Below, piece after piece: positions 38,300 through 60,376 of a DNA stretch of 64,000 nucleotides. Location of the stretch: IMG/VR virus record IMGVR_UViG_2513237176_000002; one strand, written 5' to 3'. Numbering within the stretch: the first letter of the stretch is position 1; each line of letters starts with the position of its first letter. Source of the stretch: a virus (lineage: Duplodnaviria; Caudoviricetes). The notes beneath the pieces were generated by a model that was not told the origin of the DNA, did not search any database, and saw only the letters and a program-made list of their open reading frames with translations. Made by a program: the position numbers and the translations under genes.

Positions 38300-38494
38300 G
38301 GACACGAGACTACATCCCTGACGCGGGATTCTCTAGGTATCCCTCGCCAGGCGTGTTACTGTTCCACCTATGCCCACGACGGTTGCCGCTCTGCGCCCCG
38401 ACACCCTCCCCACCCCCGCCAGCACCACCACAGCGGAGGCGGAAGGGTGGATGGAGCGCGCCCAGCCGGCGGTTGCCGGGCCGGCGGTGACGGC

Positions 38495-39526
38495 ATGAAC
38501 AGCCGCCAGCACCTCGCCGAAGACCTCGAACGCCTCAAGAAGCGCACCCAGCAAGTCGGCTGGGTCGCCTGGTTCGTCGCGATCTTCGTCATGATCTACG
38601 GGACGCCGATCGTCTACGGGCTCGCCACCGCCCACGGCATCCCCGCCGGGGTCGCCTGGATGCTGTCCCTCGCCGCCGACGGCGCCCTCGTCGTCGGCCT
38701 CATCGCCACACCCGTCCTCGCCCAGCTCGGCGTCAAAGCCGGATGGGTAGGCACCCTGCGCTGGGTGTCCGGCGGCATCACCTGGGCACTGCAAACCGCG
38801 TCCAGCTGGATCGCCGTGAACGGCCCCGACTGGGTTGGTGTCGGCGTTCACACCGCCGGGCCGGCGCTCCTGTTCTTCGTCGTCGAAGCCGCCAGCTACT
38901 TCCAGCGGAAGGTCTCGACGGCGATCGAGACGAAAGCCCGCGCGCTTGCGGCAGCGGAACAGTCCGACGCCGACCGGCGCACTCACCTCGCCGAAACCGA
39001 AGGAGCCCTGCGGGCCCGCACCGCGGAGCTAACCGCCGCACGTGCCGAGATTGAATCGCTTGCTGAACGGCTTACGGCAATCGGCCAGCACGCTGACAGC
39101 ACCAAGACCGAACTGGCCCTCACCGGTCAGCGGTACGAGAACGAGATCGCGTCGCTGCGGCAAGCTCTCACCGACCAGCGGAACACCCTTACCGCCGAGC
39201 ACGACGAGACAGTGCGTCGGCTCCGGGAGAAGCACCGGGAAGCCCTCACCGCCGCCCGCGCGGAAACCAAGACGGTAAGCCTTACCGCCTACCGCAACCG
39301 GGCCGCCGGCGGAACCCGATCCGCAGCCACCGGTAAGGCCGAGCTGAGCGACGAAGACGCAGTTCAGATGATGCTTACCGCCCACGCCGACCCGAACCAT
39401 GAGTGGTCGAAGAACGCGGTCCGCACCCTGACCGGTGTGGGCCTCAACAGGGCGCCGAAGCTCATCGGCCTTTGGCTTACCGCTGCCACCGAGAAGGCGA
39501 CCGGCAGTAAGGCGGTCGGTGAGTGA
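38495..39526 (+). CDS. SpdB/DUF2637-like membrane protein with coiled coil and C-terminal HTH
   Basis: 4 TM segments (LSLAADGAL, HTAGPALLF), long coiled coil, WSKNAVRTLTGVGLNRA. Confidence 0.7.
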   Translation: MNSRQHLAEDLERLKKRTQQVGWVAWFVAIFVMIYGTPIVYGLATAHGIPAGVAWMLSLAADGALVVGLIATPVLAQLGVKAGWVGTLRWVSGGITWALQTASSWIAVNGPDWVGVGVHTAGPALLFFVVEAASYFQRKVSTAIETKARALAAAEQSDADRRTHLAETEGALRARTAELTAARAEIESLAERLTAIGQHADSTKTELALTGQRYENEIASLRQALTDQRNTLTAEHDETVRRLREKHREALTAARAETKTVSLTAYRNRAAGGTRSAATGKAELSDEDAVQMMLTAHADPNHEWSKNAVRTLTGVGLNRAPKLIGLWLTAATEKATGSKAVGE

Positions 39527-39570
39527 GCCGCCGCCAACCGGTACGCCCCTACCGCAGCCACACCGGTGAG
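39119..39570. repeat. Cluster of CTYACCG heptamers within and after the spdB-like gene
   Basis: CTTACCG/CGGTAAG at 39188, 39273, 39281, 39331, 39374, 39476; CTCACCG/CGGTGAG at 39119, 39167, 39245, 39517, 39564. Confidence 0.65.
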
Positions 39571-39709
39571 CCGAACGGCCGCCGTCCGACTCTCATCGAG
39601 GAGACCTCATGACCTTCGTTCTGGCGTTCGCCGGCACCGTGCTCGCCGCGCTGGCCGTCATCGCCTACGACCTGTACGCCACCCGCAACCCGCTGACTGG
39701 AGACCCGCG

Positions 39710-41016
39710 ATGACGACCATGCCGCGTGAGGTCGCGATGCGCCGGCCCGCGAACGCTCCCGCCCAGCGCAGCAACGTGATCGAGGGCCGGTTCACGGTCC
39801 GCCGTAGCCCTGCCGCGCAGGCCCTGCGGTTCTTGTTTTACCTGGTCACCGCGTTCCTGCTCGCCGGGCTGCTCCTGTCCCTCGGCACCCAAAACCTGCT
39901 CTGACCAGCCCAAACTATTGAAGGAGACCGCCGTGACCGACGCTGCCACCGCCTACGGGCCCGCGCCGCGGGTGCGTCCCACGGGTGCGCCGTCGCGCCC
40001 GGCGGACCCCCGCCCGCACCTGCGGGCTGTGCCGAACCCGGACACTCTGCAACCTGAAACTGCAACGGAGGAGAACACCCCCTCCGGACACGTTTCCGCA
40101 GGCCAGATCGTTTCGGATGACGCGAATCCGGGTGCCGGGCCGTTGCAGATTGCAGGCTGGCGGGCCGCTGTAGCCCGCTCCCGCGACTACTGGACGCCGC
40201 CCGCGATTCACACCGACCAGCCGGCCTCGATGGCGGAACTGGCCGCCTACGCCCGCACCGCGCCGTGGACCGCCCAAACCAGCGGGCCGCTGCGCACCGC
40301 CGGCGTCATCTACGGATACGGCGTCGCCGTGCCGTACACGTACACCACCCGCTACCGCGAATGGGTCGCCCAGCGACCCGGCCGCCTCCTGCTCCACCTC
40401 GGCGGCATCAAACTCGCCGCCATGACCGGCCCCGGCATCTGGCTGGTCGACCACCTCATCTACCCGGCCGCGCACCTCGTCGGCCAGATCCTCCTCTAGA
40501 AAGGACCCCTCGATCATGGCCGGACGTAATCTCGTCGCCGAACGCGAAGGCGTACAGAAAGCCCAGCAGATCTCCATCTACATCCTCGGCTGGGCGGCCC
40601 AGGCCCTCGGCATCGTCGCCGGCGCCTACGCCGCGAACGCGTGGCCGGGCGGCGCCATCCGCTGGGTGTTCAACCTGATGCCCGGTGACTGGCTGATCCC
40701 GCTCACCCTGTTCATCGGGTTCATCGTGTGGGCCATCGACATCATCAACGACCTCACCCCGAACCAGGCAGCCGTGACCTTCGGGTTCATGGCCCCGATC
40801 CTCGCCCAGGGCACCGACAGCACCCTCGCCCTGCGGGTCCGGGACTGGTCGGATGCGCTGCAGGCCGGTGTCGGCGGGCAGATCGCCCCGTGGGTCGGCA
40901 ACGTCGGCGCGGGCTGGCTGTCGGTGGCGCTCATGGCAACCGCCGTCATCATCGGCAAGCGGGTCCTGCAGAAGCAGGCGTCCGCTGCTGGCCGCGGTGG
41001 TGGGGGTGGCCGCTGA
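39710..41016 (+). CDS. Three transfer-region membrane proteins (39710-39904, 39933-40499, 40516-41016)
   Basis: Hydrophobic segments, strong RBSs, co-oriented with traB. Confidence 0.65.
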
Positions 41017-42683
41017 TGTGGCTCGTCTCCGGCCTGGTGTTCCTAGCGAACCCGCTTATCGGCGCGGTGCTGCTGATGTCGGCGGCGATCACCACGAACA
41101 TTCGTGCCACGAAGGTCGACGCCGAGTACGCGAAACGCGGTGAACTGCCCCCGACGGCCCGCCTGGTCGACGCCTGGCTGAACCGGCAGAAAGCCGCCGG
41201 GAAGGCACCGGAATCGGCGAAGGTGCGCCCGTACGGGTCGCTGGCGTACGCCCGGCAGCGGTGGCTGGCGATGTGGGAAGACCTGGGGGAGAAGCACCGC
41301 GAGCAGCGCGCCGCCCACAAGAAGCAGCTTGCGGAGGCGAAGAAGAACGGCACCCCGCCGCCGAGCAAGCCGTCGTTGACGGAACAACTGGGCGGTTGGA
41401 AGTGGTCGATTCCCGGTCTGACCCGCCGGGACGAGCCCGGCAGTCCGCCGCCTTCCGCCGCGAGCGCTGACCCGGAGCCGGCTGTCGCCGACGGGCCGGT
41501 CAGCACCTGCGACGAATGCGGCGTCCAGCTGCCCGACGGTGGCTGGAAACACCCGCCCGGCTCGACCTGCCCGAAAGCCGCAAAACCGTCTGGCTCCTCC
41601 GACAGCAACACTGCCGCTCCGGCCGCGCCGGAGGATCCGCTGCTGCGGTTCCTGTCGGATGCGCAGGAAGCGGCACGCCGCAACCCGATGCCCTTCGACC
41701 GGTGCCCGCGCTGCGGCACGACTGCCACGATCACCCCGTCGGGCTGGTGCGAAAAGTGCACCATGCAGGTCCCGCACGGCATGTGCGAGCACTGCCAGGG
41801 CGTGGTCCGCCTCGACGGCACAGTGTGGCGGCACGGCGCCCACTGGCCGTGCCGGCACACCCGTCCCGCGGCCGGCGACACCATTGCCTGCACCAACTGC
41901 CGCACCCGGATCCCGGTGCACCCGGCGATCGCTGACATGGGGGCGTCAGTGCGATGCCAGCACTGTGGCGCCCAGGTCGCCGCCCGCCCACCCAGGCCCG
42001 CCTCTGCCCTGCAGCGCTGTCCTCGGTGCAGCAAATGCGACGGCCCGACCGTCCCGTCGATGAACCAGCTGCGCGGCGGCTTCTGCCCGCGCTGCGACAC
42101 CACCGATCTGCCGGCCGGCAGTGAACGTCACGGCAAATGCGACCGCTGTGGGCTGCCCGGCCGGCTTGTCGTCGCCCGCAAACGCAGCACGGAACTGCTC
42201 CACGACGCCAACGGGTCAACGATTTGCCCCTACGAGACGCCGCAGCTACGCGAACTGCGCCGCACCGATCCGGGCACGGCCCGCATCTACGACGAGATCG
42301 TCGCCAAGCACCTTCGCAACACCCCGGCCGTCGACACGCAGCAGACGGCCAAGACGCCCGTACCAGCCCGAGAAGAGGGAGCATCCATGCCCGAGCATTC
42401 CGGTGAAGTCACCGGCATCCCGTCCGCCGTCCACTACCTGCAGCAGATGGCCGCCGCGCACCGGCAGCACGCCGACAACGAGGCGATGATCGCCACCCTC
42501 GCGGGTTTCCACGTCGGTGCCACCGACCTGGCGCTGGTGCAGCAGGCCATTGCCGCCAGCAACAACGCGGCGGACCTGTACGCCGACGCCGCCACGACGA
42601 TCGACGACGGTAACGCCGCGGTTCGGCAGGGCTACGCGTCCGCGCCGGACGCCGCCGACAAGCACGCCCAGATGGCGGAGTGA
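41016..42683 (+). CDS. Membrane-anchored multi-Zn-ribbon protein ending in a ~98-aa helical domain
   Basis: N-terminal TM, at least nine CxxC motifs, C-terminal domain paralogous to 42680-43027. Confidence 0.7.
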   Translation: MWLVSGLVFLANPLIGAVLLMSAAITTNIRATKVDAEYAKRGELPPTARLVDAWLNRQKAAGKAPESAKVRPYGSLAYARQRWLAMWEDLGEKHREQRAAHKKQLAEAKKNGTPPPSKPSLTEQLGGWKWSIPGLTRRDEPGSPPPSAASADPEPAVADGPVSTCDECGVQLPDGGWKHPPGSTCPKAAKPSGSSDSNTAAPAAPEDPLLRFLSDAQEAARRNPMPFDRCPRCGTTATITPSGWCEKCTMQVPHGMCEHCQGVVRLDGTVWRHGAHWPCRHTRPAAGDTIACTNCRTRIPVHPAIADMGASVRCQHCGAQVAARPPRPASALQRCPRCSKCDGPTVPSMNQLRGGFCPRCDTTDLPAGSERHGKCDRCGLPGRLVVARKRSTELLHDANGSTICPYETPQLRELRRTDPGTARIYDEIVAKHLRNTPAVDTQQTAKTPVPAREEGASMPEHSGEVTGIPSAVHYLQQMAAAHRQHADNEAMIATLAGFHVGATDLALVQQAIAASNNAADLYADAATTIDDGNAAVRQGYASAPDAADKHAQMAE

Positions 42684-43027
42684 ACGCCGTGACCGAGGAG
42701 AACACCGTGACCGTTCAGCAGTCCGCTGCGGGCGCCCGGCCCGCCAGTGAGATCACCGGGATCCGCTCTGCGGTGACCCGCATGGAGCAGATCGCCGCGC
42801 AGCATCAGACGCTCGGCTCTGGCGAAGGGTTCATCGGTTCCCTGAGCCGCATGGAGGTCGGCGACGACCACCAGCAGAAGGTCCGGGACGCGCAGGAAGC
42901 GTCCGGTGCCGCCGGCGCCGCCTGGGCGGAGGCGGCGGCACAGATTGCCGCGCACAACCTGCCCCTGCACGAGGCGTACCTGAACAACCCGAACGCGGCG
43001 AACAAGCACGCCAACACCAACGAGTAA
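42680..43027 (+). CDS. Small helical-hairpin protein
   Basis: EITGIRSAV...VG...Y..NP.AANKHA matches the C-terminus of the upstream gene. Confidence 0.75.
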   Translation: MNAVTEENTVTVQQSAAGARPASEITGIRSAVTRMEQIAAQHQTLGSGEGFIGSLSRMEVGDDHQQKVRDAQEASGAAGAAWAEAAAQIAAHNLPLHEAYLNNPNAANKHANTNE

Positions 43028-43034
43028 CCAGGTT

Positions 43035-43059
43035 GGCCCCGCCCACCATGGGCGGGGCC
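43035..43059 (+). terminator. Intergenic 11-bp stem-loop before traB
   Basis: GGCCCCGCCCA / TGGGCGGGGCC; no U-tract. Confidence 0.5.
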
Positions 43060-43085
43060 CCGAGATCTGAGGAACGGAGGCAGCG

Positions 43086-45176
43086 ATGCCGACCCAGCAG
43101 AAACCGCAGCAGCCGGCCCGGCAGGCTGCCCCGCTCACCACCCGCGAGAAGATCGAACGTGCCCGGCTGCACGCGCAGACGGCACGCCGCCACGCGCAGA
43201 CCGCGCACAGGTACACGGCCGGGGTGCAGAAGCAGGTCGCCCCGTTTGCCGGCATGGGCCTGCTCGTGCTCGCCGCGACGGCCCTGCACGCGGCGAAGGA
43301 CGCCACCGCCGCCGACGCGGAGATCCTCGGCGGCACGGCCGCCGCCTGTGTGGTCATCGCCGTGGTCGCCGCACACCAGATGCGCCGGCGCCTCGACGAC
43401 CGCAAGAGCCTGCACCGCGGCCTGGCGTTCGTCACCACCTGCGGGGTGTGGCTGATCACTACCACCGCCATCGGCGTGTCCTGGAACGCGGTCGGGTTGC
43501 TCGCCGCCATTGGCACCGCTCTTTCCCTGCACTACCTGCGCAAGGTGCGGATTCCCAACCGCGGCCCGGTGATGCCTGCCCCGCTGCCGGACCCGCTGAA
43601 GCCCGGCGTCAACCGGTACGTGGCCCGCTGGGACGAATACATCGGTTGCCCCGGCGGACAACTGCCCGGCTCGAAATTGGAGTCGCCGGAGCAGGTGAAA
43701 GCCGGGTGGCGGTTCGCGCTGCGGCTGGTCCCCGGCAAGCAGTCCATCGCCGCGCTCATGTCGGCGATGGTGCTGATCCGCGGCGGCCTCGGCCTGACCG
43801 TCGAGCAGGACGTCATCGCCGAACGCCACCCTGTTCTTGAGGAACCCGCCGTCCAGCTGACCGTGGTCACGAAGCCGCAGGTCCGCGACGACCAGGAATG
43901 GCCGGGCCCGCAGACGTTCCGGGACGGCTACGTCGACATGGGCCCGTTCATCGACGGTGAGGGCCACGCCCGGTGGAAGGTGTACACCAAGGACCGCATG
44001 GTCGGCGGTTACATCCAGGGCGGTGCCGGCGCCGGTAAGTCCCGCCTCATCGAGTCGATCGTGATGCCTATCGCCGACTCGCAGACCCATCCGACGGTGG
44101 TGTGGTACGGCGACGGGCAGGGTGGTTCGTCGTCGCCGACACTGATGCGCTGCGCCGATTTCTCGGCACGCACCCACGAGCAGATCAAGCAGATGTTTGC
44201 GTGCGCCATGTTGATCGTCGAGCTGCGCCAGGACGAAAACAGCGTGGAGGACGACCCGGACGAGGACGGCGAGTACGACGACACGATCGGGTTCGAACCC
44301 ACCGCTGACCGACCTGGACTGCTACTCATCCTGGATGAGTGCCACAAACCCATGTCGAAGATCGAGAACGCTGAAGACTGGGTGGTCATCCAGTACATGG
44401 CGATGACCGTGGCCCGCGAAGGACAGAAGGTTGGTGTCCAAGCGATCCTCGCGTCCCAGGAGTCCACGCTCGGCGCGTTCGGTGGGGCCGGCAACAACGC
44501 GGAGATGCTGCGTTCCAACCTGCTCATGGGCAACGGTGTGATGATGCGGTCGAAGGACGCGAACGCCCGCCAGGTGTTCAAGGTCGACGACGATCCGTCG
44601 CAGTTCCCGGTGATGCCCGGCTACGCCCTGCTCATCGACCCAGAGGAAGGTGCCCGCACCGCCCCGTTCCGGGCCTACTTCCTCACCGACCGGCTCCGCA
44701 AAGAATGGCCGTCGAAGATCCGATGGCGGTCGCTGCCCGACGGCGACGCCAATACCGCCGGGATGGCCTATCTGATGCGGCACCAGCTCGCGGAGATGGC
44801 GAAGGAGGAAACCCGCCGCCGGATCAAAGAGCGCCGGGAAGGCCGCGGCATGACCAACCCCCTCGACCGGATCTTCGCGGCGGCGAAGGGTGGCGACGGC
44901 GCCGAACAGGTCACGCCGATCGAGGCGGAGCAGGTGGCGTCATTCCCGGTATGGAACCCGGTCACCGAGCAGGTCCAGGCGCGGCAGATGCATGACAGTC
45001 ACCGCAAGGTGCTGGACGCGCTGAAGGTTGGCATCTGCTCGCCGAAGCCGATCGCGGAAGCCACCGGCATTGGGCAGCGGCAGGTCCACAACCTGCTGGA
45101 CGAGTTGATGGACGAGTTCGGCCGGGTGGAACGTGACGGGCACGGCAAGTACCGGCTGGTGTCCACCGATGCGTGA
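43086..45176 (+). CDS. traB: FtsK/SpoIIIE-family TraB-like DNA translocase
   Basis: N-terminal TMs, Walker A GGAGAGKS, Walker B LLILDECH, LASQ, C-terminal wHTH. Confidence 0.85.
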   Translation: MPTQQKPQQPARQAAPLTTREKIERARLHAQTARRHAQTAHRYTAGVQKQVAPFAGMGLLVLAATALHAAKDATAADAEILGGTAAACVVIAVVAAHQMRRRLDDRKSLHRGLAFVTTCGVWLITTTAIGVSWNAVGLLAAIGTALSLHYLRKVRIPNRGPVMPAPLPDPLKPGVNRYVARWDEYIGCPGGQLPGSKLESPEQVKAGWRFALRLVPGKQSIAALMSAMVLIRGGLGLTVEQDVIAERHPVLEEPAVQLTVVTKPQVRDDQEWPGPQTFRDGYVDMGPFIDGEGHARWKVYTKDRMVGGYIQGGAGAGKSRLIESIVMPIADSQTHPTVVWYGDGQGGSSSPTLMRCADFSARTHEQIKQMFACAMLIVELRQDENSVEDDPDEDGEYDDTIGFEPTADRPGLLLILDECHKPMSKIENAEDWVVIQYMAMTVAREGQKVGVQAILASQESTLGAFGGAGNNAEMLRSNLLMGNGVMMRSKDANARQVFKVDDDPSQFPVMPGYALLIDPEEGARTAPFRAYFLTDRLRKEWPSKIRWRSLPDGDANTAGMAYLMRHQLAEMAKEETRRRIKERREGRGMTNPLDRIFAAAKGGDGAEQVTPIEAEQVASFPVWNPVTEQVQARQMHDSHRKVLDALKVGICSPKPIAEATGIGQRQVHNLLDELMDEFGRVERDGHGKYRLVSTDA

Positions 45177-45177
45177 G

Positions 45178-45429
45178 CTAGTCCTTGATCTCGCGGGCCA
45201 AGTAGACGATCCCGGACCGTTCGGGTTCCTCGGTGGAGATCTCGTACTGGTACACGTCGACAAGCATGAGGATGCGGCAGTTCCGTTTCTCGAAGAAGCC
45301 CACCTTGCGATCAATGAACTTGTCCCACACCTCGACTCGCACACCTGGCCGCGGTTCGAACGGCAGCTTGATGCTGTCGAGCAGCACCTTCTGGTGGTTG
45401 TCGGCGTCGATGAACTTCACCGTGACCAT
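45178..45429 (-). CDS. Small beta-rich moron-like protein
   Basis: TACACT-N6-ATG leaderless start; opposite strand inside the tra operon. Confidence 0.6.
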   Translation of the reverse strand: MVTVKFIDADNHQKVLLDSIKLPFEPRPGVRVEVWDKFIDRKVGFFEKRNCRILMLVDVYQYEISTEEPERSGIVYLAREIKD

Positions 45430-45485
45430 GCGCGCAGTGTAAGCACACTTGCACGCTGCGGCGAACCTGAAGGGGTGAGCGCGCA

Positions 45486-46301
45486 GTGATGGGGAAGTCG
45501 CATGCTCTGTCCGGCGCCGTCGGTTGGCTCGCCGGCAGCGCCGCGCTGACCGTAGCCGGGGTGTCCCTCGACCCGGCCACCGTGCTGTTCGGTGCCGCGA
45601 TCTCCACCGGGTTCGCCCTCGCGCCGGACGTTGACCATCCGCAGTCCACGATCGCGCACACCCTCGGCTGGGCCACCCGCGGTCTCGCCACCGGAGTCAG
45701 CCGCAGCGCCGCCGCCCTGCGCACCGCGTCCTGCGCGCACTGCTCCACCGTCCCCGACCGGGGCGGGCACCGGGCTGTCACGCACACTGCTGCCGGTGCC
45801 GCGTTCGCCGGCTTGGTCGCCGCGAACCTGTGCCTGTGGGTCGGCCGGGGTGCCGCCCTGTGGGTCATCGCGATCGCCGTGTGGCTGGCCGCCCACTCCG
45901 CGCTGTCGTCGAGGACGCGGGCGCGGATCGGTGACATGATCCTGCCCGGCCGGTTCCGGCGTCTCGGCAAAGGAGCCCACCGCCTCGCCGCCGCTGTCGG
46001 GGCGGTGATGGTGGCCGGGCTGGTCGCCGCGATGGCGAACAGCGCGCTTCCCGCTGACGGCCTGTGGTGGATCGGCCTCGCCGTGTTCTGGGGCTGGCTC
46101 GCCCATATCCTCGGCGACGGCCTCACGTTCTCGGCAGTCCCGCTGTGGTGGCCGATCCCGATCCGGGGCTGCCGGTGGACGAACGTCGGCACCCCGAGGT
46201 GGATGCGATTCCGCACCGGCTCCCGCACCGAAACCGGTGTGGTGTGGCTGATGCTGCTCATCGGTGCCGGCTCGATCGCACTGCTCGGGAGCGCCTGGTG
46301 A
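45486..46301 (+). CDS. YdjM-family membrane metal-dependent hydrolase
   Basis: MMGKSHA, PDVDHP.S, GHRAVTH, HILGDGLT..AVPLWWP. Confidence 0.85.
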   Translation: MMGKSHALSGAVGWLAGSAALTVAGVSLDPATVLFGAAISTGFALAPDVDHPQSTIAHTLGWATRGLATGVSRSAAALRTASCAHCSTVPDRGGHRAVTHTAAGAAFAGLVAANLCLWVGRGAALWVIAIAVWLAAHSALSSRTRARIGDMILPGRFRRLGKGAHRLAAAVGAVMVAGLVAAMANSALPADGLWWIGLAVFWGWLAHILGDGLTFSAVPLWWPIPIRGCRWTNVGTPRWMRFRTGSRTETGVVWLMLLIGAGSIALLGSAW

Positions 46302-46585
46302 CCCGGACGCCCGATGACCATCCGGCCTGGTGCCTACGTGACGAGGTCGACGCGATCCTGCCCCGGCACCGTTCGGCGATTGTGCGGGTCGGCAGTGCCC
46401 GGCCCGGTGTGCTGTCCGATCGGGTTCAGGTCACCGTCCGGTTGACCGCGACCGCTCACGGCCCGGCCTGGGTGTCCGTGAACTGCGCCCACATGACCGG
46501 GGTGACCGTGGATATCAGCCTCGCCGATGCGGCGGCGCTGAGGGACGGACTGACTCGGCTTCTCCAGGCCGCCGAGCACAAGTAG
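46298..46585 (+). CDS. Hypothetical protein with HPxWC motif
   Basis: GTGA overlap; HPAWC...LSLADAAALRDGL-type C-terminal helix. Confidence 0.55.
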   Translation: MTRTPDDHPAWCLRDEVDAILPRHRSAIVRVGSARPGVLSDRVQVTVRLTATAHGPAWVSVNCAHMTGVTVDISLADAAALRDGLTRLLQAAEHK

Positions 46586-46981: not shown

Positions 46982-47344
46982 CTACCTGACGGTGGCGCGG
47001 CGGTCCTTCACGCCGGAGTTGATCGCGGCGCGTTGCACGGCGGTGTCGCGGAGCAAGCCGAAGTAGACCGCGACGGCGATGCCGAAGTTCACGGCGATGC
47101 CGTAGCCGACCTGCCACGCGTCGAACGACTCCCCGGTCTGGGTGGCGCCGAGCGCGGCCTCGAGGAACGCCTTCACCGCGGACAACGCCAGGAGGACGAG
47201 GCCTTTGGTGAACGCCGACCAGGACGACTTCATGAGCAGGCCGGCGAGCAGCGGCAGGATCACCGTCAGCGCGAGGGAAAGCAGCCCGGCGGGGGAGGCC
47301 TCGAACAGGTAGGTGGGCAGGGTGGGGAAGACGATCGAGTCCAT
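46982..47344 (-). CDS. Putative holin
   Basis: 120 aa, 3 TM, VILPLLAGL....W....KGLVLLALSAV, basic C-terminus; same strand as late genes. Confidence 0.7.
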   Translation of the reverse strand: MDSIVFPTLPTYLFEASPAGLLSLALTVILPLLAGLLMKSSWSAFTKGLVLLALSAVKAFLEAALGATQTGESFDAWQVGYGIAVNFGIAVAVYFGLLRDTAVQRAAINSGVKDRRATVR

Positions 47345-50846: not shown

Positions 50847-51317
50847 CTACTTCTCCTCGGCGAGCAACGTCACCTCAGCGGTGGTACCGGTACGGGCCGC
50901 TTTGGTGGCCCGGCCGATGTCCCGGACGATCTGCGCCACCCGCGCCCACGACGCGACCGCGATGGCGCCGATGAAGCTTCCGGCGGTGATGGCCTGTGAC
51001 CCGGACACGGTGACGAGGGCGATCGTGTACATGGTGGTGGCGGCGGCGAGGACGAATACCCCGATCGACTCCAGCTTGAGGCTGGCGTACAGGGTGCCCG
51101 GCCAGAACACCCCGGTAAGACCGACAACGCCGCCGATCAGCAGCTCGTACGTCCAGATCTGCTGCACCACCGGATGCAGCGCGGACGCCACCGAACGCGG
51201 CGACAACTGCATGGTGAGGAGCGTGACCCCGGCCAGCGCGGCAGCAGCGAGGGTCATCACCTCGAACGGGTGCCGGCCGGTCACCACCTGAATTGGGCGC
51301 AGGAACCGGTTCGGCAT
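50847..51317 (-). CDS. Lysis-region 4-TM membrane protein (holin-like)
   Basis: Four TM segments; coupled to the lysin. Confidence 0.65.
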   Translation of the reverse strand: MPNRFLRPIQVVTGRHPFEVMTLAAAALAGVTLLTMQLSPRSVASALHPVVQQIWTYELLIGGVVGLTGVFWPGTLYASLKLESIGVFVLAAATTMYTIALVTVSGSQAITAGSFIGAIAVASWARVAQIVRDIGRATKAARTGTTAEVTLLAEEK

Positions 51318-52351
51318 CAGGCGGCGAGCATCTCGCGCAGCGCCCCGGTGACCGCGGACTGCAGTTCGTCGGCGCTGATGTCGTCCCGGTCGGCGGGCAG
51401 CATCCCGATCACTGCGGCGGCAACCGTCGGCGCGAGAGCCGCCGCGAGCGCCTTCTCGTCCACGAAGTCGAGCTTCGCGACCGCGGCGATCCCTGCCTGC
51501 GCGTTGCCGGCGTAGCCGCGGGCCGCGATCGTCGCGTTGTAGATGTTCGCGATGTATGACTCCGCCGACCAGTGGGTGTTCGGTGAGTTGTCCGGGTTCT
51601 TCGACCCGGCCGGGGCGCCGAGCACGCCGTCGGTGCGGAACACGGCGGCGGCGAGTGCGGCTTTGACGTCGGTGTCCTTGAGCAGCGTCAGGAACTCGTC
51701 CTTGGTCATGGTGTCATCCTCCTGTTGCTGCGGGGCGATGGATTGCTGCCATTCGACGTACGTCCAGCCCATGTCGATCGTCAGGGCCTTCCACATGTGC
51801 GGGAAGGAACCGACGATGGCGCGGCGGAACGAGTCGTGCCGGTGCCAGGTGTGCGTGGTGTCGCCGCTGGTCTCGTCGTCGTCGCGGTACTCGTTGTAGC
51901 CCTCGATGACACGGTCGTTGTCGATCTGCCCGAGGGTGTACGCGTAGACGTCGTCCGGGCGCAGATCGTCCGGGTCCCGCATCGCAGTGATCAGGCGCTT
52001 GGTGTACAGCGAGATCGTGCGGTAGTCGCCGCGCTGGGCGTCGCGGAACGTCCAGTCGTGTGCCGAGGTGAAGTTCTTCCACCACGGTCCTGTCCGGTCG
52101 GGTGCCCGCCGGATCGAATGGTCGGTACGACTATCGCCGAGCCCGTGATCCGGAAGCCGCGAGCCGTACGAGTGGTAGCCCGGCTTCAGGGCCAGCGTGC
52201 CGCCGTTCTCCGACTTCTCCGGCTCCAGCGCCTCGCGCATGCAGACCAGCCACCACAGGGCGTCCGTCATCCGCTGCGGGTTCGGGTTGGGCCGGGGGAG
52301 TGTGAAGTCCGGCGGAGCGCCGCGGGAGTGTGTGCGCGGGTGCATGACCAT
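51317..52351 (-). CDS. Putative endolysin (Zn-peptidase M15-like) with VDE.ALA C-terminal tail
   Basis: Position after tail genes; KPGYH...AHD...HTWHRH candidate metal ligands. Confidence 0.65.
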   Translation of the reverse strand: MVMHPRTHSRGAPPDFTLPRPNPNPQRMTDALWWLVCMREALEPEKSENGGTLALKPGYHSYGSRLPDHGLGDSRTDHSIRRAPDRTGPWWKNFTSAHDWTFRDAQRGDYRTISLYTKRLITAMRDPDDLRPDDVYAYTLGQIDNDRVIEGYNEYRDDDETSGDTTHTWHRHDSFRRAIVGSFPHMWKALTIDMGWTYVEWQQSIAPQQQEDDTMTKDEFLTLLKDTDVKAALAAAVFRTDGVLGAPAGSKNPDNSPNTHWSAESYIANIYNATIAARGYAGNAQAGIAAVAKLDFVDEKALAAALAPTVAAAVIGMLPADRDDISADELQSAVTGALREMLAA

Positions 52352-52711
52352 CAGGCCGCCTCCATCCGCTCCACCCGCCGGGCGGTGTCGATGACTGCGT
52401 CGGCGGTGTCGGCGTGCCACTGGTCGTGGATGCTGCGCCCCTTGTCGGGGATCGCGGTGCCGCAGATGACGCACGGGTAGAACGCGGTGTCGGTGGGCAG
52501 CGGGCGCGGGCCGATGCCGATGAAGTCGCCGCCGCTACTCACGGTGCTCTTCGAACCCGTTGAAGGCGGGCTGGGCGGCCTGGGCGAGCGCGGTGAGCCG
52601 GTCGATTTCGCGTTGCTGCATGGCGATGATCGCCGCCTGCTCGGCCAGTTTAAATTCGATGGGATAGTCCTGCTGGATCTGGCCCAGGAGGACTGCGGGG
52701 TCAAGCTGCAT
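52351..52711 (-). CDS. Two small late genes (52351-52542, 52535-52711)
   Basis: CVIC..HDQWH motif; short coiled-coil gene with AGGAG RBS. Confidence 0.6.
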
Positions 52712-52720
52712 GCGGGTCTC

Positions 52721-53164
52721 CTAGCTCGACAGCAGTTCGATGAACAAAAATCCGGGGGCGGCTGCGGAGCCGCGGACCTGATGGTTCGCGGAGCCCGAGT
52801 TGCGTTGCGAGGTCAGGGCGAACGTCTTCGACCCGGACGCAACGGCCGTGTATTCCGCGTGGATGCGGCAGGTGAAGCCGACACCGGAGTTCGACAGGAT
52901 CGCGTACTGGCCGATGTTGAGCTGGGTGCCGCTCACGCCGTCTTCGCGGATCCGCAGTTGGTTCGTTTCATTCACCGGGAAGGTGCCGGTACTGATCGAC
53001 AGGCGGACGTCAGCGACAATCGCGTACGTCCAGCCGGCGACCAGCACCCCAGCGACGGTGAGAACCGACGTTTCGGCGGTGAACGTGGCACTGTCGGCGG
53101 TGAGTTTCGCAGTGTTAACGCGGCGCGCAAGTAGGGCCGCCGAGAGGACTTGGCCGGCTGGCAT
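52721..53164 (-). CDS. Minor tail / fibre-like beta protein
   Basis: PAGQVLSAALL N-terminus, beta-sandwich pattern, position after the large tail protein. Confidence 0.65.
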   Translation of the reverse strand: MPAGQVLSAALLARRVNTAKLTADSATFTAETSVLTVAGVLVAGWTYAIVADVRLSISTGTFPVNETNQLRIREDGVSGTQLNIGQYAILSNSGVGFTCRIHAEYTAVASGSKTFALTSQRNSGSANHQVRGSAAAPGFLFIELLSS

Positions 53165-53172
53165 GCCACCTC

Positions 53173-56019
53173 CTACAGGGCCACATATGCCGGGTCGGCG
53201 AGCGATACTCGCGCCCCGCCCACATGGGGTTTGTTGACATTGTTTTTGGACCTGACCGCACCGGTGACGGTTTGCAGGTAGGGTCCAGTGCCGGTCGGGG
53301 CGGACATGCCGGCTGCGGGGACACCGATGACTTCACCGTCGATGTCCAGGTCGTAGCCGCCCGCGGTCGCCCATGTCTCCATCCGGCTCACCGTTTTGAT
53401 GACGAACGTGGTGGCCGAGGCGTTCAGTGCCGCGTTGAGGGTGCTCGACAGTGAGTCCAGCAGCGAACCAGGGTCGTCGACGACCGCGACCCGCCACGGC
53501 TCAGCTGGATCCGTGTCCACCGAGGCAGCCCACGACCGTGGCGCGAGGGTCTCGGATCCGCCGACGATAACCTGGTCGATGGTGTCGACCCCGGCGATCG
53601 TCGGCTGGTTGAGGCGCTGAATGCGGGAACCGGGCCGGCACAGCAGCCAGTCGTCGATCAGGTCGGGGTTGGCGGCCAGGTCAATGCTGGCGGCCGGATA
53701 GGTGGCGCCTTGCGCGTCCGCGGTCAGGTGGACGCGCCAGCGGGCGTGATCGCCGAGCTGGGTGTCCGACAGCAGATCCAGCGTGGCCTTGCCGGGGATG
53801 GTGCCGCGCCGCTGCCGGTAAGTGGTGTCCGCTCCCCAGGTCGCCGACGACCCACCGGTCCGCTCAACCGTCCAGTAGTTCGGGGCCCGCGAGTTGAGGA
53901 CTGGCACCAGCACTTGGGCGGGGTCGGTGCCCGCGGACCGGGCGTACGTGCCGAGGTCGATCACCATTGTCGGGTCCGGGTTGTAGCGGGCCGCCCGCGG
54001 CACCATCGTGTACCCGAACGCGTCTTCGTGCAGGATGGCCCCGGACTCGGCCTCTGCCGCCGCCTTGACCAAGTCCACGAAAGTGCCAGGCTGCTGAGTG
54101 TTGAGCTGGGTGATGCCGTCTGCCGGGGGAGTGGCGGTCACCTCGAACGGCACCCGTTCCTCAGCGGACAGCCGCCCAGCCCGCTTGTGGGCGGGTTCGC
54201 CCCACCAGCCGCGGTCCGCACGGTACTGGCCGTACTCGTCGACCTTGAACGGCAGCCCCGAACTGTCCGTGTTGCGCACCAGCAGGTGACCCATGATGAA
54301 CTTCAGGCCCGCCTGGTTGGTGGAGGCGGTGACGTTCGCCCGGTCCGGGTTCAAGGAGATCGGCCCGAGTACGGAGCCGAGGGTGCCGGCAACCGTGCCG
54401 CTGCCCCACGTGTTCGCATTGAGCAGGATGTCGACGTCGATGTTGCCGCCGTCTTGGACCATGACGACGTCGATGAACATCCAGCCGACGAAGTTGTGGT
54501 TCGCGACGGCGACGGTGGTGTTGGTGCCGGCCTGCGTGTTGTAGGCGCGGACGATGTGGCCGGGCGTGTTGGTGGAGATCAACGCCCACCGGTCCCAGGT
54601 GCCGGTCGTTGACCATTCCAGCAGCCGGATTTCGCTGGTTGCTGGTAGGACGGCTTGGGTGAACTGGTTGACGGAGACGGTGACCGTCCACGCATTAGAG
54701 GTGACGAGGTTGGTGACCGACCCGGCCAGGCGGGCACCGGCTGCCAGGGACACCAGGTTTTTGGTGCCGTAGTTCGCCAGTTCGGCGTCGTCGGGAACAC
54801 CGGTGCTGGCATCGAACACGACGGGGCCGGTGGGCAGCAGCGGTGGTTGCCCTTCCAGGGCGGACGCGGCCTGCGTGGACCGTTCAGCGTCTTCGAGCGG
54901 CCAGTAGGCAACCGGCTCCACCGCGCCTTTCTGCAGGGCGCGGCGCAGCGGTGACCACTCGGGTGCGTCCTTGCCTTCCAACCGGGTGCCGACCCCGCCC
55001 AGTTCGATCTGGGCGACGCTGTGCGCCGAGCCGTCAGCAAGCGGCAGGAAGGTGGTGCGGACGTCGGCGATGTAGCCTTCGAACCGCGAGTATTTGGGCT
55101 GCTCCACCCGGAAGTTGTCGACGGTGAACACGTACGGCAGCGCGTTCGTGGTTGACGCGAAAATCCAGGCCTGGAAGCCCAGGTAGTCCTGCCGCCCGGT
55201 CTGCACGGTCACCGTGTAGTCGATCGGCCAGTCGGAAGGTTCGGTGCCGGATGCCGCCCAGGCGCGCATCCGTACCCGTTCGCCGACGACGAGGAGCCGC
55301 AGCCGGATCATCTGCCCGGCCGCGTAGGTGAGGCCCGGCTGGCTCGCGGCAGCCAGATCCGACGTGTTGTGCCGCAGCCGTAGCCCGATGGTGCCGCCGG
55401 TGCCGAAGTCGAGGGCCGCCCACAGGTTGGTGTTCGCGGCGGTGCCCCGGAAGTAGATGCCGGCGCCGACCGCGTTGCCGACCGGAATGGCGGGAACCGC
55501 GACGTCGATGGTGGCGTCGATGTCGCGGTGCGGCACCACCGCCCGCGCCCGGCGGATCACGTCTTTCGCGGTGAACGTGATCTGCCCTTGGGTGCCGTTG
55601 GTGCTCATCGCGGCGGGGCTCGAATACGACCACATTGTCGGCCCGACGTCGGCGGGTCCGATTGAGTTGGTTTGCGGGGTGCCGGTGAACGTGTGCAACA
55701 CGATCGGACCCGGCTTGGTGCGCACTTCCAGTTTGAACGGGGTGCCGGCGTCCACGTACGGCCACCACTGCGAGCCGGGATGCAGCGCGGTCAGCTGGCC
55801 GTCGTCGTTGAGCAGGTGCACGGTTGCGGACGCCGACCGGCTGCTGGACCCGCCGACGATCACACCCCACTGGATGGTGATCGGTGTCGGGAGCAGCCGG
55901 TCGGACAGGTCCGTCCACGTCCACGTGTCCGGGTCGGCGGTCAGGTCGGCACCGAACGCCGCGCTGGCGGTTATTTCCAGGTCGGCGCTGCCGGGGAACT
56001 CGCCGGTCGGGGATGTCAC
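53173..56019 (-). CDS. Large minor tail protein with lectin/LamG-like domains
   Basis: WTWTDLS, LLNDDGQLT, PVAYWPLED, GEVI.V...TVT.AVRS.N.V.K.H..GA.V.LA.P. Confidence 0.85.
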   Translation of the reverse strand: MTSPTGEFPGSADLEITASAAFGADLTADPDTWTWTDLSDRLLPTPITIQWGVIVGGSSSRSASATVHLLNDDGQLTALHPGSQWWPYVDAGTPFKLEVRTKPGPIVLHTFTGTPQTNSIGPADVGPTMWSYSSPAAMSTNGTQGQITFTAKDVIRRARAVVPHRDIDATIDVAVPAIPVGNAVGAGIYFRGTAANTNLWAALDFGTGGTIGLRLRHNTSDLAAASQPGLTYAAGQMIRLRLLVVGERVRMRAWAASGTEPSDWPIDYTVTVQTGRQDYLGFQAWIFASTTNALPYVFTVDNFRVEQPKYSRFEGYIADVRTTFLPLADGSAHSVAQIELGGVGTRLEGKDAPEWSPLRRALQKGAVEPVAYWPLEDAERSTQAASALEGQPPLLPTGPVVFDASTGVPDDAELANYGTKNLVSLAAGARLAGSVTNLVTSNAWTVTVSVNQFTQAVLPATSEIRLLEWSTTGTWDRWALISTNTPGHIVRAYNTQAGTNTTVAVANHNFVGWMFIDVVMVQDGGNIDVDILLNANTWGSGTVAGTLGSVLGPISLNPDRANVTASTNQAGLKFIMGHLLVRNTDSSGLPFKVDEYGQYRADRGWWGEPAHKRAGRLSAEERVPFEVTATPPADGITQLNTQQPGTFVDLVKAAAEAESGAILHEDAFGYTMVPRAARYNPDPTMVIDLGTYARSAGTDPAQVLVPVLNSRAPNYWTVERTGGSSATWGADTTYRQRRGTIPGKATLDLLSDTQLGDHARWRVHLTADAQGATYPAASIDLAANPDLIDDWLLCRPGSRIQRLNQPTIAGVDTIDQVIVGGSETLAPRSWAASVDTDPAEPWRVAVVDDPGSLLDSLSSTLNAALNASATTFVIKTVSRMETWATAGGYDLDIDGEVIGVPAAGMSAPTGTGPYLQTVTGAVRSKNNVNKPHVGGARVSLADPAYVAL

Positions 56020-56524
56020 CAGCCCGCCCCCTTACTGCCAGGAGCCGGAGACTGATCCATGAAATAGGTCCAGAGCAGCGGATCGGCGCTCTGGCCCACC
56101 CCCGTTGGTCCGTTCCGGCACGCCATGACCCACCGGCTGCAATTCGAGCCAGAGGCTACGAACATCAGGCTTTAACAGTGGGCGTCTTCATGACGCAGTA
56201 GTGACTCCTTTAGATCCCAGCTGCACGCATGGATTCCCCTCGAATGCCGCAATGACCTGCACGTTTTCCTGTGCTGCCCCATGTCCCGCCAGCTGCTCAG
56301 AAGACCACGTCTCGCTATCCGCGACGGAGCGGAGTACCTCTCTGGCAGGGCCAAGAAAGGGCGGTTATGCGCGAGAGGTCCACCAGGCGGCTGTACAACT
56401 ATGTCCAGGTCGGGGCGGCACCCGAGCGACTACTCGCCTGTCAGCGCTGGAGACGAGAAGCGCTCCAGCCTCACCCTCCAGGCAGGAGGGCCCTCCAGGC
56501 AGGAGGACTACACGAGGAGGCGCG

Positions 56525-56725
56525 ATGCGGAAGCACCGCACCGGCCCTGCGAAACACCGAAAGCGCGAGGCTGCGCGACGCCAACGGAAGACGGCGCCGC
56601 AAACGACCCCTCAAGGCAATCGGTGGCGTCTCAACACTGAGGCGTCGGTCGTGGTGATGAGGTTCGCCACGGCGATGGTGCGGATGTTCCACACCATCAA
56701 CGGAGAGGGTCCCGCCGGCTACTAA
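56525..56725 (+). CDS. Small basic protein inserted antisense within the tail operon
   Basis: AGGAGG RBS; K/R-rich N-terminus plus hydrophobic helix. Confidence 0.5.
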   Translation: MRKHRTGPAKHRKREAARRQRKTAPQTTPQGNRWRLNTEASVVVMRFATAMVRMFHTINGEGPAGY

Positions 56726-56849
56726 CAACCGGCGAGACCCCGTTGAGGCGGGGCGCCCGAAAGCTTCGCGGGCGGAAGGGCGCTCCGTTCCTCCTCACCA
56801 TCGCATGCTCCCAGCGATGTCAGGCGGTCAGAACTGAAAGCCGAGGGGG

Positions 56850-59800
56850 TTAGCTACCGAACGCCAACTGCGGGTCACCCCGATACGAGAACTTGATCAG
56901 GTTGCGGAAGGCGTCCAGGACTTGATCCCCGGTGGCCCCCGACACCCAGCGGGCCTCGAGAGTGCGGGAATCCGCCACCGCGAGGCTGCGGGTGATCGCC
57001 GCATCCGCGTCGAACCCGAGCCCCATCGCCGCGTCATCAATCTGCGGCAACGCGGACGCGGCCAGACGTTCGGCTGCCGCCTGCACCAGGCCGGCGTCGG
57101 CGTCGATTCCCAGGGCAAGGCCCTCCGGTACACCGCGGCCCAGCTTCGCTGCCTCTTTCGACGGCGAGTTGATGCCGAGTGCCGCTTGGATGGCGTTGGT
57201 GACATAGTTCTGCGCGAAGTTCGCCACCCGGTTCCACAGCCACGACGACAGTTCGGCGATGCCGTTCCACAGGCCGCGGACCACGTTGCGGCCGGCGGAC
57301 ACTAGCCACGAGCTGGCGTTCGACACCGCCCCGGTGACCTGGCTGCGGAGCTGTCCGGCCCTCGAGCGCAGGTCGCCGAGCCGGTTGGAGATCCCCGACA
57401 TGAGCCCGCCGACCGCGTTGCGGCCGGTGCCGGCCAGCCACGACCCGGCGCCCGCGACAGCGTTCGTGACGGTCGTCTTCAGCTGCTCGGCTCGGCTGCG
57501 CAGCGACCCCAGCAGATTGGAGATCCCGTTCAGGAAGCCGCGCACCACGTCGGCGCCGATGCTGGCGAACACGGTGCTCGGGGACTTGATCCCGAACAGG
57601 TTCTTGACCGCGCTGATAACGCCGTTGAACGCCGCCTTCACCACGGCCTTGACGATCGGGCCTTGCGCGACGATCCCGGCGAGGAAACCGGTGACGATCC
57701 CCGCCGCGATGTCCGCGCCGAGGCTTTCGGACTCGTCGGACGAGAACGCGGACCGGATCTGCTCATACAGGCCAGTGATCTTGTTGCCGAGTTCGATGCC
57801 CTCCGAGATCGCCGCCTGCACCTTGCCGATGAAGTCTTGGATCTTCTGCTGGTTCTGCGGGTTCGCCAGGTAGTCGGCGACCTTCTGCAAGCCGATCCGG
57901 AACTTCTCCAGCGGGGACTCGCCGGGGTTTGTCGCCTGCGACCCGGTGATGATCTCGAAGATGGAGCCGATGATCGAAGCGACCGTGTTACCGATCGCGA
58001 AGATCTCCCGCAAAGCCTGGCTAGCCCGCTCGAAGAAGTCCTCAAGGCCGCCGGACCGTTCGCCCTGCTCCACCCAATCCGAGAACCGGGTAACGATCTC
58101 GGCCAGGCCCTCGCCGAGCTCCTTCAGGAACGGCGCCGACGCCTTCGCTAGCCGCCCGAACGCCGGAACCAGCTTGTTCGCGACCGCGTCGAGCAGCGGC
58201 TCCAGGCCTTGCCGGAAACCCTCCGCCGCGGCCTGGATGTTGTCCATGAACTCGGTCGTGGACAGCTGCGAGCCGAGATCCTTGAAGAAGCCGTTGAACG
58301 TGTCCGCGTACGCGCCGAGCGTCGTCTTCAGCCGCGGGATCCAGGCGTTCCCGAGGTTCGTGACCGTGCGGTCCAAGCCCTGGAACAGGCGCTGCTGCAC
58401 GTCCAGCCGCAGATCGTCGAACGCGGGCTTCAACGCCTTGATCGCGTTGACGAACTTCTGCGCGGCCGGTGCCAGCTTGGTGACCTCCTTCGCCACCCCG
58501 CCGCCGCCCGAGGCGACCTTCTGCTGCGACTGGGCAAGAGAATCCTGCGCCGACTTCAGGCCATCGGTTGCGGACTTGACGCCGTCGAGGGCCGCTTTGA
58601 CCCCGTCCTGCGCCGACGCGAGGGAGTCCTGGGCGTCGATGACCCCGAGCTGGGCGTCCCGGACACCCTTGAGAGCTTCTTCCTGATCTCGGTAGGCGTC
58701 CTGAACCTCGTCGGACCCCTCCACGCCTTTCCGGTTCGCTTCGTCGGTGGCCTCACCGAGATCCCCAGCAGTGTCCTTCGCCTCTTCGAGCGCCAACTGG
58801 GCGCGCTGATAGGCGAGCTCAGCGCGCTGAATGTCCGGCAGATTGCCGGTCACCCTGGCGGCCTCGAGCTCCCGCAGGGCGTCAGTAACGCCGAGCGCGG
58901 CCTCCTTCTCCGACAGTTGCGCGCCCCGCAACGCCCGGTTGAGGTCTTCGATGTTCTCCGCCGCGTCCTTACGCGCCTGGTTGATGGCCTTCTGCGCGTC
59001 GGTGACCCGCTTCTGCGCCTCCACCACCCGCAGCTGCGCCTCGGCATAGTTGCGTTCCGCCGCAGCCAGCGACCGCTCGGAGGCCTCGACCTGCCGATTT
59101 GCGGCGGCGATACCCCGCCGGGCGGCCTCCACCTGCCGGGCTGCTGCGGCGATCTGCCGGGCCTGGTTGACCGCACCCCCGCCGCCTCCACCGCCCCCAC
59201 CGGTGTCCTTGAACGCCTCCCCGATGCCCTTGAACCCCAGCCCGAGAGTGCCGATCACCGCACCGACACCGGCCAGCGCACCGGGAATCGCCGCAGCAGC
59301 ACCCGCCACCGCCGTGATAGCCGGCACCGCAGCCACAGCCGCGGCGGACAGCGCGGCCATCGCCGCGACAGCGCCAGCGACCAGCCCGACGATGATTCCG
59401 ACGGGCCCGGACGCTGATGACAGCGCGCCGGACAGGCTGCTGCCGAGCTGCACGGCCTGACCGGCACCCCGCGAGATCGCGTCACCGAGGCCGTTGAACG
59501 CGCCCTTCAGCGCAGACACGCCGGGGATGGCGCCGGACAACATCCGGCCAATACCCGACAGCGCCCGCGACGGCTTGTCCGTGTCAACGTCAACTTCGAC
59601 GTCCACGTGAACATCGGCGCCCTGACCGGCGCGCGCCGCCGCGGCACGGACCTGCTCCGGTAGCCGGGACGTGTCCGCATCCACCGGCACGCTCGCCTTG
59701 ACGCCCTGCACCGCCGAGGACACGGCGGCCCGTAGCCTCTGCCCAAGTCCCTGGACGCCGTTTGTGTCGGCAGTGACCGGGACCTGTACCGGCCCGGACT

Positions 59801-59942: not shown

Positions 59943-59959
59943 GACACCCCCGGCCCGAC

Positions 59960-60376
59960 TCAGGTCGTGGTGTCACCCGGCGGGATCAGCCCAAGATTCC
60001 GCAGCCGTTGTGCCACGTCCGCACCGACCGGTTTCTGCTTCGGCGTGCGCTGCTGCTGCGGCAGTTCGACCGGCTTCGGCTTAGCTCCCTTGCCACCCGA
60101 CCGCTGCCAGTTCGCGCCGGCAAGCTGGTGGTCGATGCGCCGCAGCAGGAACTCGGTGACCCCCCACGCACCCATCGGCCCCCGCATTTTGCGGTGCAGT
60201 GCCGACTCCGGTGGCAGCGATTTGATCCGGACTAGGAGTTCCCGCGGGGAGTAGCGGCCTTCCTGGCGGGGACCGTAGAGCGCGTCCGCGAGCCGGATTT
60301 GGTAGTAGCGGTGGAGGTCCGCTTCGATGGCCTCCCCGTGCTCTTCGAGGAGCCGGCGGAGGCCGAGGCTTCCCCC
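59960..60376 (-). CDS. Tail assembly chaperone, -1 frameshift extension (gpT-like)
   Basis: No own start; GGSLGLRRLLEEHGEAIEADL...ANWQRSG.KG.KPKP. Confidence 0.85.
   Translation of the reverse strand, partial: GGSLGLRRLLEEHGEAIEADLHRYYQIRLADALYGPRQEGRYSPRELLVRIKSLPPESALHRKMRGPMGAWGVTEFLLRRIDHQLAGANWQRSGGKGAKPKPVELPQQQRTPKQKPVGADVAQRLRNLGLIPPGDTTT

Follow-up and report, generated by a model that had tools for sequence, protein, structure and literature searches.

A Tra/Spd-like gene block in a 105-kb tailed prophage of a mycelial actinomycete, and heptamer arrays within its SpdB2-type gene

Gene content of the block and its carrier element

The window analysed in this study is a 64,000-nucleotide stretch of tailed virus DNA (Caudoviricetes; IMG/VR record IMGVR_UViG_2513237176_000002) with a G+C content of about 67%. 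Its positions 38447-46301 hold a block of co-directional genes resembling the Tra/Spd transfer systems of actinomycete plasmids, which is the subject of this report. Genes were called by third-position G+C content (GC3), all positions are whole-window coordinates, and L and G numbers are working labels of the loci and genomes compared. The first-pass annotation had described an operon of about 8 kb with Spd-like membrane proteins, an ATPase carrying a winged helix-turn-helix (wHTH) and a YdjM-like hydrolase; this description was borne out by the gene row, by a PF04307 match and by the fold model of the ATPase. The extent originally given (38370-46585) held for the row 38447-46301, but its right end had been set by an open reading frame (ORF; 46064-46585) that overlaps the YdjM gene and is doubtful as a gene. 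The row comprises nine plus strand genes, eight of which are listed here together with one small ORF of the opposite strand.

38447..39526, plus strand: SpdB2/DUF2637-type protein of 359 amino acids (aa), with 3-4 transmembrane (TM) helices, a long coiled coil and a small three-helix C-terminal domain; PHROG 25954
39566..39904, plus strand: small protein with a single TM helix at its C-terminus, 64-112 aa long as its start is uncertain; 41% identity in G001/L001
39918..40499, plus strand: 193-aa protein of no family, the most widely kept partner of the ATPase (tblastn match in 23 of 32 loci)
40516..41016, plus strand: 166-aa protein with three TM helices, also a kept partner (17 of 32 loci)
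41016..42683, plus strand: 555-aa protein with an N-terminal TM helix, a Cys-rich multi-zinc-ribbon region and a C-terminal helical domain of ~95 aa
42680..43027, plus strand: 115-aa helical protein, a free paralogue of the C-terminal domain of the 555-aa protein (37% identity, E-value (E) 2e-10)
43086..45176, plus strand: 696-aa membrane-anchored, single-domain P-loop ATPase with an FtsK/TcpA fold and a C-terminal wHTH, a candidate Tra-like translocase
45178..45429, minus strand: 83-aa ORF between the ATPase and YdjM genes; 47% identity in G001, no family match
45486..46301, plus strand: 271-aa YdjM-family membrane metal-dependent hydrolase (PF04307, E 2.8e-18, 66.5 bits against a cut-off of 29; PHROG 20744, E 6e-27)

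The proteins of 193, 166 and 115 aa accompany the ATPase in most loci. No Pfam/PHROG/NCBIfam-type family match and no usable protein-atlas lead were obtained for the first of them; likewise, no WXG100 or other family match was found for the 115-aa protein, for which the atlas displayed a generic helical hairpin only and no usable lead. The 555-aa protein showed many zinc-ribbon-like Cys pairs with weak DZR/Zn_ribbon matches, as well as a weak E-[VL]-T-G-I-P match to pZL12.72c (E 0.04). The YdjM gene is accessory, since elsewhere it was recorded in L001, L003 and L017 only. In the antisense ORF at 45178-45429, second-position G+C was very low (0.27).

The carrier of the block is a single 105.4-kb insertion in the genome of a mycelial actinomycete, which is closed and consists of one 8.77-Mb contig. 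A region of lower G+C extends from the window start to about +105 kb, and the island is bounded by a perfect 37-bp direct repeat (window -181..-145 and +105156..+105192) that has two copies, no third one having been found. An empty site was recognised in four genomes of the same genus, where the 90-200 bases left of the left attachment site (attL), together with the attachment (att) core, directly precede the orthologue of the right-flank gene. The two-copy repeat and the empty site therefore establish that the 105.4-kb island is one insertion. The search for relatives took in one unpublished genome (G030), on which no claim depends. That the block lies inside a tailed prophage, as first proposed, was confirmed by the tail genes at 51-64 kb and the head genes at 70-77 kb of this one island.

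1..1314, plus strand: tyrosine integrase (PF00589, E 8.5e-22) at the island's left end, next to attL; the latter precedes the window start by 145-181 bases
51317..64000, minus strand: tail module of the same prophage, with the tape measure (56850-59942), major tail (61326-61892) and tail terminator genes, and others

The large terminase, portal, protease and major head genes at 70-77 kb are located beyond the window and on the same strand as the tail genes.

A search among related elements for the presence of the block, which the first-pass annotation had recommended, was productive. The same block was found at the same place, with 30-66% protein identity, in the complete 112.5-kb relative G001 (an IMG/VR genome of 112,563 bp with a 123-bp direct terminal repeat (DTR) and a CheckV completeness of 100%), which has 48 genes in common with the island, in the same order and over the whole island length. 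The block therefore predates the divergence of the two elements. Relatives of the ATPase occurred in 17 viral contigs and 15 genomes, with tail or holin-region genes near the ATPase in about ten other loci. Together, the collinearity with G001, the recurrence of the module and the nearby tail genes argue that the block is an old and integral module of the phage lineage and not a captured actinomycete integrative and conjugative element (AICE); at the level of sequence comparison, it is a conserved syntenic module of the whole lineage. The integrated form with defined ends and the breadth of this phage lineage are new here. Neither a tyrosine integrase nor ParB was found in G001, and neither gave a match in G002, a 108.6-kb provirus, so that the lineage seems to vary in its mode of maintenance. 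No ParB was found in the island either.

Similar modules also occur on plasmids. An Amycolatopsis plasmid displayed the same layout, in which the genes of a GntR regulator and a DUF2637 protein are followed by three small genes, one gene coding for 612 aa and the gene of an ATPase homologue; on a Nocardiopsis plasmid the ATPase homologue adjoins NUDIX and ParA genes. Although such plasmid relatives could suggest that an independent AICE or plasmid was recently captured by this prophage, this is extremely unlikely. The block itself lacks an integrase, an att pair and a replication gene (as noted from the start, no integrase or repeat pair was found bounding it), its G+C is only slightly raised, and its conserved position in G001 makes it older than the divergence of the two elements. 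Moreover, AICEs are about 9-24 kb in size, and the sole att pair here encloses 105.4 kb with virion genes. The initial suggestion of an AICE or captured plasmid was consequently abandoned.

At the integration site, the 37-bp att core contains ATG codons and sits at the 5' end of a host gene coding for 626 aa. The core of the right attachment site (attR; L035 1156-1192) is preceded on the phage side by the ribosome-binding-like site GGGGGAGG, and the prophage may therefore supply the upstream signals of this host gene; the attL core is at L036 5820-5856. When L036 was compared with L048 and L049, from related genomes, the gene left of attL here was found there downstream of the right-flank gene and inverted, which points to a local rearrangement in the present genome at the site of integration. 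Within the island, four plus strand genes at 30506-33915 look cellular and may represent cargo or serve lysogeny. Their products are an alpha/beta hydrolase, a regulator of the HTH_31/DUF5753 type, a sigma-70 region 4/helix-turn-helix (HTH) protein and a protein weakly resembling PP2C.

The ATPase and its relatives

The ATPase displayed four predicted N-terminal TM helices (residues ~47-153), a Walker A motif GAGAGKS and a Walker B motif LLILDECH, and among 30 homologues the Walker A residues G312-K318 and the Walker B residue E418 were invariant. In its AlphaFold model (mean predicted local distance difference test score, pLDDT, of 80), the four N-terminal TM helices precede a RecA-like core, and the protein ends in a wHTH made of helices at 637-678 and a beta wing with a pLDDT of about 90. 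In Foldseek comparisons, the conjugation coupling protein TcpA and the FtsK motor came out on top (E 4.5e-15 to 1e-13), with EccC/EssC and HerA behind. A family profile built from 30 sequences matched the ATPase domains of EccC (E 7e-8), HerA and FtsK, and its C-terminus matched wHTHs of the MarR/ArsR type. A large protein collection held 91 homologues, nearly all of them unnamed; most of the named ones belonged to Micromonosporaceae.

Other searches were negative. The ATPase matched no Pfam (at E<=0.01), PHROG or NCBIfam model, a single-sequence phmmer search against the PDB gave nothing useful, and a megablast search with the block against phages found no match. Using tblastn, no relative of this Tra-like ATPase was found in any sequenced phage of the collection, which sets the block apart from phiC31 and phiBT1. 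The solved structures of TcpA (from pCW3) and of the FtsK motor were the best structural matches of the ATPase core, at a sequence identity of only 12-16%. A relaxase and a type IV secretion system, both absent here, are the partners of TcpA, and FtsK is chromosomal and reads KOPS (FtsK-orienting polar sequences) via its gamma domain, unlike the ATPase of the block.

Closer in architecture are the systems of Streptomyces plasmids pSVH1, pIJ101, pJV1 and pWTY27, in which an FtsK-like ATPase of ~700 aa is likewise anchored in the membrane and ends in a wHTH. The initial naming of the protein as TraB/FtsK was upheld for its membrane anchor, FtsK/TcpA fold and wHTH; in contrast to Streptomyces TraB/Tra, it had no PF01580 match, and clt, the site read by TraB, was not found beside its gene. 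As modelled, the ATPase has the architecture of TraB, its sequence family lies outside the curated FtsK_SpoIIIE model and it is not a canonical TraB. The placement of this family is new here. Two further differences from the Streptomyces Tra/Spd systems are the extra genes of the block (Zn-ribbon protein, helical paralogues and YdjM) and the carrier, a 105-kb phage instead of a plasmid or AICE of about 9-25 kb.

The profile result also raises the question of type VII-like secretion, since EccC was the best sequence-profile match of the ATPase domain (E 7e-8) and a pair of helical paralogues of ~100 aa is coded directly upstream. The ATPase would then export two substrates, the 115-aa protein and its relative at the C-terminus of the 555-aa protein. 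This is very unlikely in view of the predicted architecture, which has one ATPase domain instead of three and a wHTH of DNA-binding type at the end. In addition, TcpA and FtsK outranked EccC/EssC by fold, family scans detected no WXG100, Ecc or other component of such a system, and the first gene belongs to the plasmid Spd family.

Alternatively, the pump could maintain the element, by segregation of a plasmid form into spores or compartments, or protect the lysogen by superinfection exclusion or defence. An extrachromosomal form of G001, a complete relative without tyrosine integrase and ParB, would need some route of inheritance, and FtsK/HerA ATPases are known in defence systems. Both roles are quite unlikely. 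PADLOC found no defence system, the weak match to mad8 (E 7e-4) concerning the P-loop only and being accompanied by coiled-coil noise; the copy studied here is integrated and requires no partition; and the partner proteins are of the Spd type.

The closest comparison concerns pZL12 (GQ919031), in which three genes stand directly beside head genes and code for a membrane protein (398 aa), a protein of 766 aa and an FtsK-like protein (725 aa). These are presumably its transfer genes, judging from their layout. The 2010 account by Zhong et al. (J Bacteriol 192:3747) on pZL12 and phage ZL12 of Streptomyces reportedly provides an experimental precedent for a plasmid-phage with a transfer locus. Like the island, pZL12 has on one replicon the full gene set of a tailed virion and a transfer-type locus, the latter coding for an FtsK-like membrane ATPase, a membrane protein and a large protein. 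The relationship of the two ATPases was visible only by profile comparison: hhalign linked the family to pZL12.71c (probability 91%, E 1e-6) through 294 aligned columns that begin at the last TM helix and end at Walker B, whereas tblastn gave no match. The partner proteins of pZL12 are not detectably similar to those of the island, and its locus lacks the heptamer array that the island has. Furthermore, pZL12 exists as a free circular plasmid, with genes for ParA/ParB and a GntR regulator adjoining the locus, in contrast to the island, which is integrated via a tyrosine integrase and in which no ParB was found. The hosts also differ, namely Streptomyces for pZL12 and a Micromonosporaceae-type family for the island.

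The SpdB2-type gene and its heptamer arrays

At the level of its TM domain, the product of the first gene displayed 29-35% identity (tblastn) to DUF2637 proteins of pJV1 (E 8e-10), pWTY27 and other small plasmids, and equally to gp25 of phiC31, phiBT1 and TG1. The block thus resembles the Spd operons of Streptomyces plasmids, whose small membrane proteins include an SpdB2/DUF2637-type one with a homologous TM domain, and also phiC31 and phiBT1, where gp25, a DUF2637-type membrane protein coded by the phage, is homologous to the product of the first gene. According to the literature, SpdB2 is the most conserved spread protein, and phiC31 is cited in an mBio review among the actinophages with an SpdB2 homologue. 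PF10935 matched 7 of 20 positional analogues of the first gene (best E 1e-20), several analogues matched HTH families, and the window's own copy had no PF10935 match. The C-terminal domain was modelled as three helices (pLDDT 74-84); Foldseek found nothing significant for it, the top rows being homeodomains and the FtsK gamma domain, all with E>0.5.

The first gene contains most of a heptamer array:

39119..39570, no strand assigned: CTYACCG array of 11 heptamers (7 on the plus and 4 on the minus strand), located within the 3' half of the first gene and immediately after its stop codon

The CTYACCG repeats noticed in the first-pass annotation are real, with 61 copies in the window against 20 expected and 11 of them within 452 bp. 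Plus strand copies are in frame and read as Leu-Thr-X, and minus strand copies occur in other frames; CTT makes up 23% of the Leu codons of the first gene, against 6% in the background. In G001, an unbiased heptamer scan revealed a different array at the homologous position, with copies on both strands and in two reading frames. In 15 of 20 loci with full flanks, a distance of 1.4-4.8 kb separated the strongest heptamer cluster from the ATPase gene downstream of it, where uniform placement would predict 3.1 such loci; this comparison is not a strict test since the 20 loci are related. At least 11 different motifs were found across these loci, and in six other loci viewed in detail the array was situated in the 3' half of the first gene every time, often in several frames or palindromic.

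Recognition of the array by the wHTH of the ATPase, in the way TraB reads clt, was considered and rejected because this domain keeps nearly the same recognition helix in loci with at least six motifs. Moreover, L012 and L013 have the same heptamer motif with ATPase wHTHs that are only 36% identical. In L027, the ATPase motor is 81% identical to that of L005, but the array and the HTH of the first gene match those of L004; the motif therefore tracks the C-terminal HTH of the array-bearing protein. As far as these sequence comparisons go, the heptamer motif follows the putative HTH of the SpdB2-type protein and not the wHTH of the ATPase.

A comparable organization was observed in pJV1 (L053/L054, NC_001759.1), which like the block has a heptamer array inside its SpdB2-type gene. 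Its DUF2637-type ORF (666-1781) holds the strongest heptamer cluster of the plasmid (1092-1742), composed of 10-12 copies of CGTGAGC in two frames and on both strands and followed by an HTH. This cluster is separate from the nine published clt repeats, which are located just after the Tra gene (11107-81). No strong array was found in the membrane-protein genes of the distant plasmid L044 and of pZL12. As judged from these sequences, the gene-embedded array is a general and apparently undescribed feature of SpdB2-type genes, distinct from clt. Such lineage-specific arrays, together with their likely reader, are new here.

Possible roles of the block and its surroundings

From the sequence and model comparisons we infer a function in DNA transfer. 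It is somewhat probable, and more so than any other function considered, that the block represents a Tra/Spd-type double-stranded DNA (dsDNA) translocation module of a temperate siphovirus-like element of ~105 kb, which moves the phage's own DNA. The membrane-anchored ATPase would form a hexameric FtsK-like pump. Together with the SpdB2-type channel or anchor protein and the small membrane proteins, it would move the excised or replicating circular phage genome through hyphal walls or septal cross-walls, so that DNA would enter neighbouring compartments or contacting mycelium without virions. The C-terminal HTH of the SpdB2-type protein may bind the array in its own gene and thereby hold the DNA of the element at the membrane beside the pump. 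This interpretation is favoured because the ATPase has an FtsK/TcpA fold, a TM anchor and a C-terminal wHTH, because hhalign links its family to pZL12.71c and because the first gene matches DUF2637 proteins of plasmids and phages. Further arguments for it are the same layout on the Amycolatopsis plasmid, the fact that the module belongs to the phage and that the island is one insertion, and the absence of any defence system found by PADLOC.

Several observations weigh against a transfer module. PF01580 (FtsK_SpoIIIE) gave no match at the ATPase locus even at E<=1, though FtsK/EccC-like genes elsewhere in the genome match this model; pZL12.71c likewise has no PF01580 match, and the failure is therefore no argument against a transfer role. 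The ATPase wHTH does not co-vary with the arrays, and a search for a lineage-independent motif cluster suited to this conserved domain recovered only generic GC-rich heptamers at scattered places. No clt-like array was found downstream of or beside the ATPase gene (45-48 kb), the existing array being situated 3.5 kb upstream of it. No GntR/TraR-type regulator was detected among the neighbours scanned, which did not include every small ORF. Contigs from RNA libraries of four studies span all of 36-56 kb, tail genes alike, and have no bearing on block-specific transcription (a joint from 41312 to 51673 in such contigs was discarded as an artefact, one side resting on 20 bases). Finally, phiC31 has an SpdB2-type gene and is not known to conjugate, and Spd-like proteins may therefore serve phages otherwise.

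One such service would be restricted to a single mycelium, with phage genomes pumped through septal cross-walls after infection or induction. This role has been proposed for the SpdB2 homologues of the actinophages phiC31 and VWB, which would help phage DNA to spread (PMC4447253). The homology of phiC31 gp25 to the first gene and the location of the block between replication and lysis genes are consistent with it. Yet phages of the phiC31 type have the SpdB2-type gene only, whereas the full set with a Tra-like ATPase is present here, as in the pZL12 transfer region and on plasmids. A strictly intramycelial role is unlikely, although its mechanism is common to that of transfer between mycelia and the two are not exclusive. 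The original idea that the phage also spreads by hyphal conjugation was accordingly kept in part: it agrees with the plasmid-like layout, with the relatedness to plasmid Spd proteins and with the remote homology to pZL12.71c, and does not agree with the non-canonical ATPase and the lack of a classical clt beside its gene.

With regard to transfer of the phage's own DNA, a more specific proposal can be put forward tentatively, and we hold it rather doubtful. SpdB2-type proteins could be membrane-anchored, sequence-specific DNA binders whose sites in their own genes constitute a second cis-acting transfer site and dock the mobile DNA at the translocation channel; combined with a divergent Tra-like pump, this would let a 105-kb virus genome conjugate.

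Both sides of the block are occupied by phage functions.

36167..37573, minus strand: primase/polymerase-associated replication protein (PHROG 28894, E 1.5e-69), left flank, divergent from the block
46982..47344, minus strand: phage holin of 120 aa with 4 TM helices (PHROG 8269, E 4.6e-10), right flank, kept in G001, L002 and L011

The left-hand gene agrees with the divergence of the block from a replication module (module 2) that had been described before. On the right side, past the holin, a replication-initiator-like gene was found at 47858-48676. The holin and the tail genes are ~4 kb apart with plus strand initiator-like genes between them, and the late/lysis region is therefore interrupted.

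Three iteron-like heptamer clusters were observed beside replication-type genes. The iteron-like AAGTTACG (8 copies, 8934-9400) adjoins a helicase gene (9140-10588), the iteron-like AGGGGTC (7 copies at about 36.0 kb, 35998-36300) adjoins the primase/polymerase-like gene at 36167-37573, and ACGTCGG (6 copies, 48184-48600) is located inside the initiator-like gene at 47858-48676. Taking into account a DnaB-like helicase coded at +82.7-84.1 kb, several replication modules seem to be present in the island. The genes at 9140-10588 and 36167-37573 were considered as paralogous helicases, which was rejected since their proteins are unrelated and have in common only a small gene upstream of each. These small genes (10387-10698 and 37570-37926) displayed 71% DNA identity over 122 bases and both map to one gene of G001 (about 91.0-91.3 kb), which looks like a duplicated module head.

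If the block does transfer phage DNA, a whole lineage of temperate phages of mycelial actinomycetes would have two routes of spread, virions and virion-free dsDNA transfer between hyphae, and the boundary between phages and conjugative elements would be blurred well beyond the single case of pZL12. Host range, receptor-based resistance and gene flow in antibiotic-producing actinomycetes would then need rethinking. The gene-embedded arrays offer a concrete handle on DNA recognition by Spd proteins, which has been obscure since their discovery. As the host genome is closed and covered by at least ten public sequencing studies, the question of conjugation is open to direct testing in this prophage.

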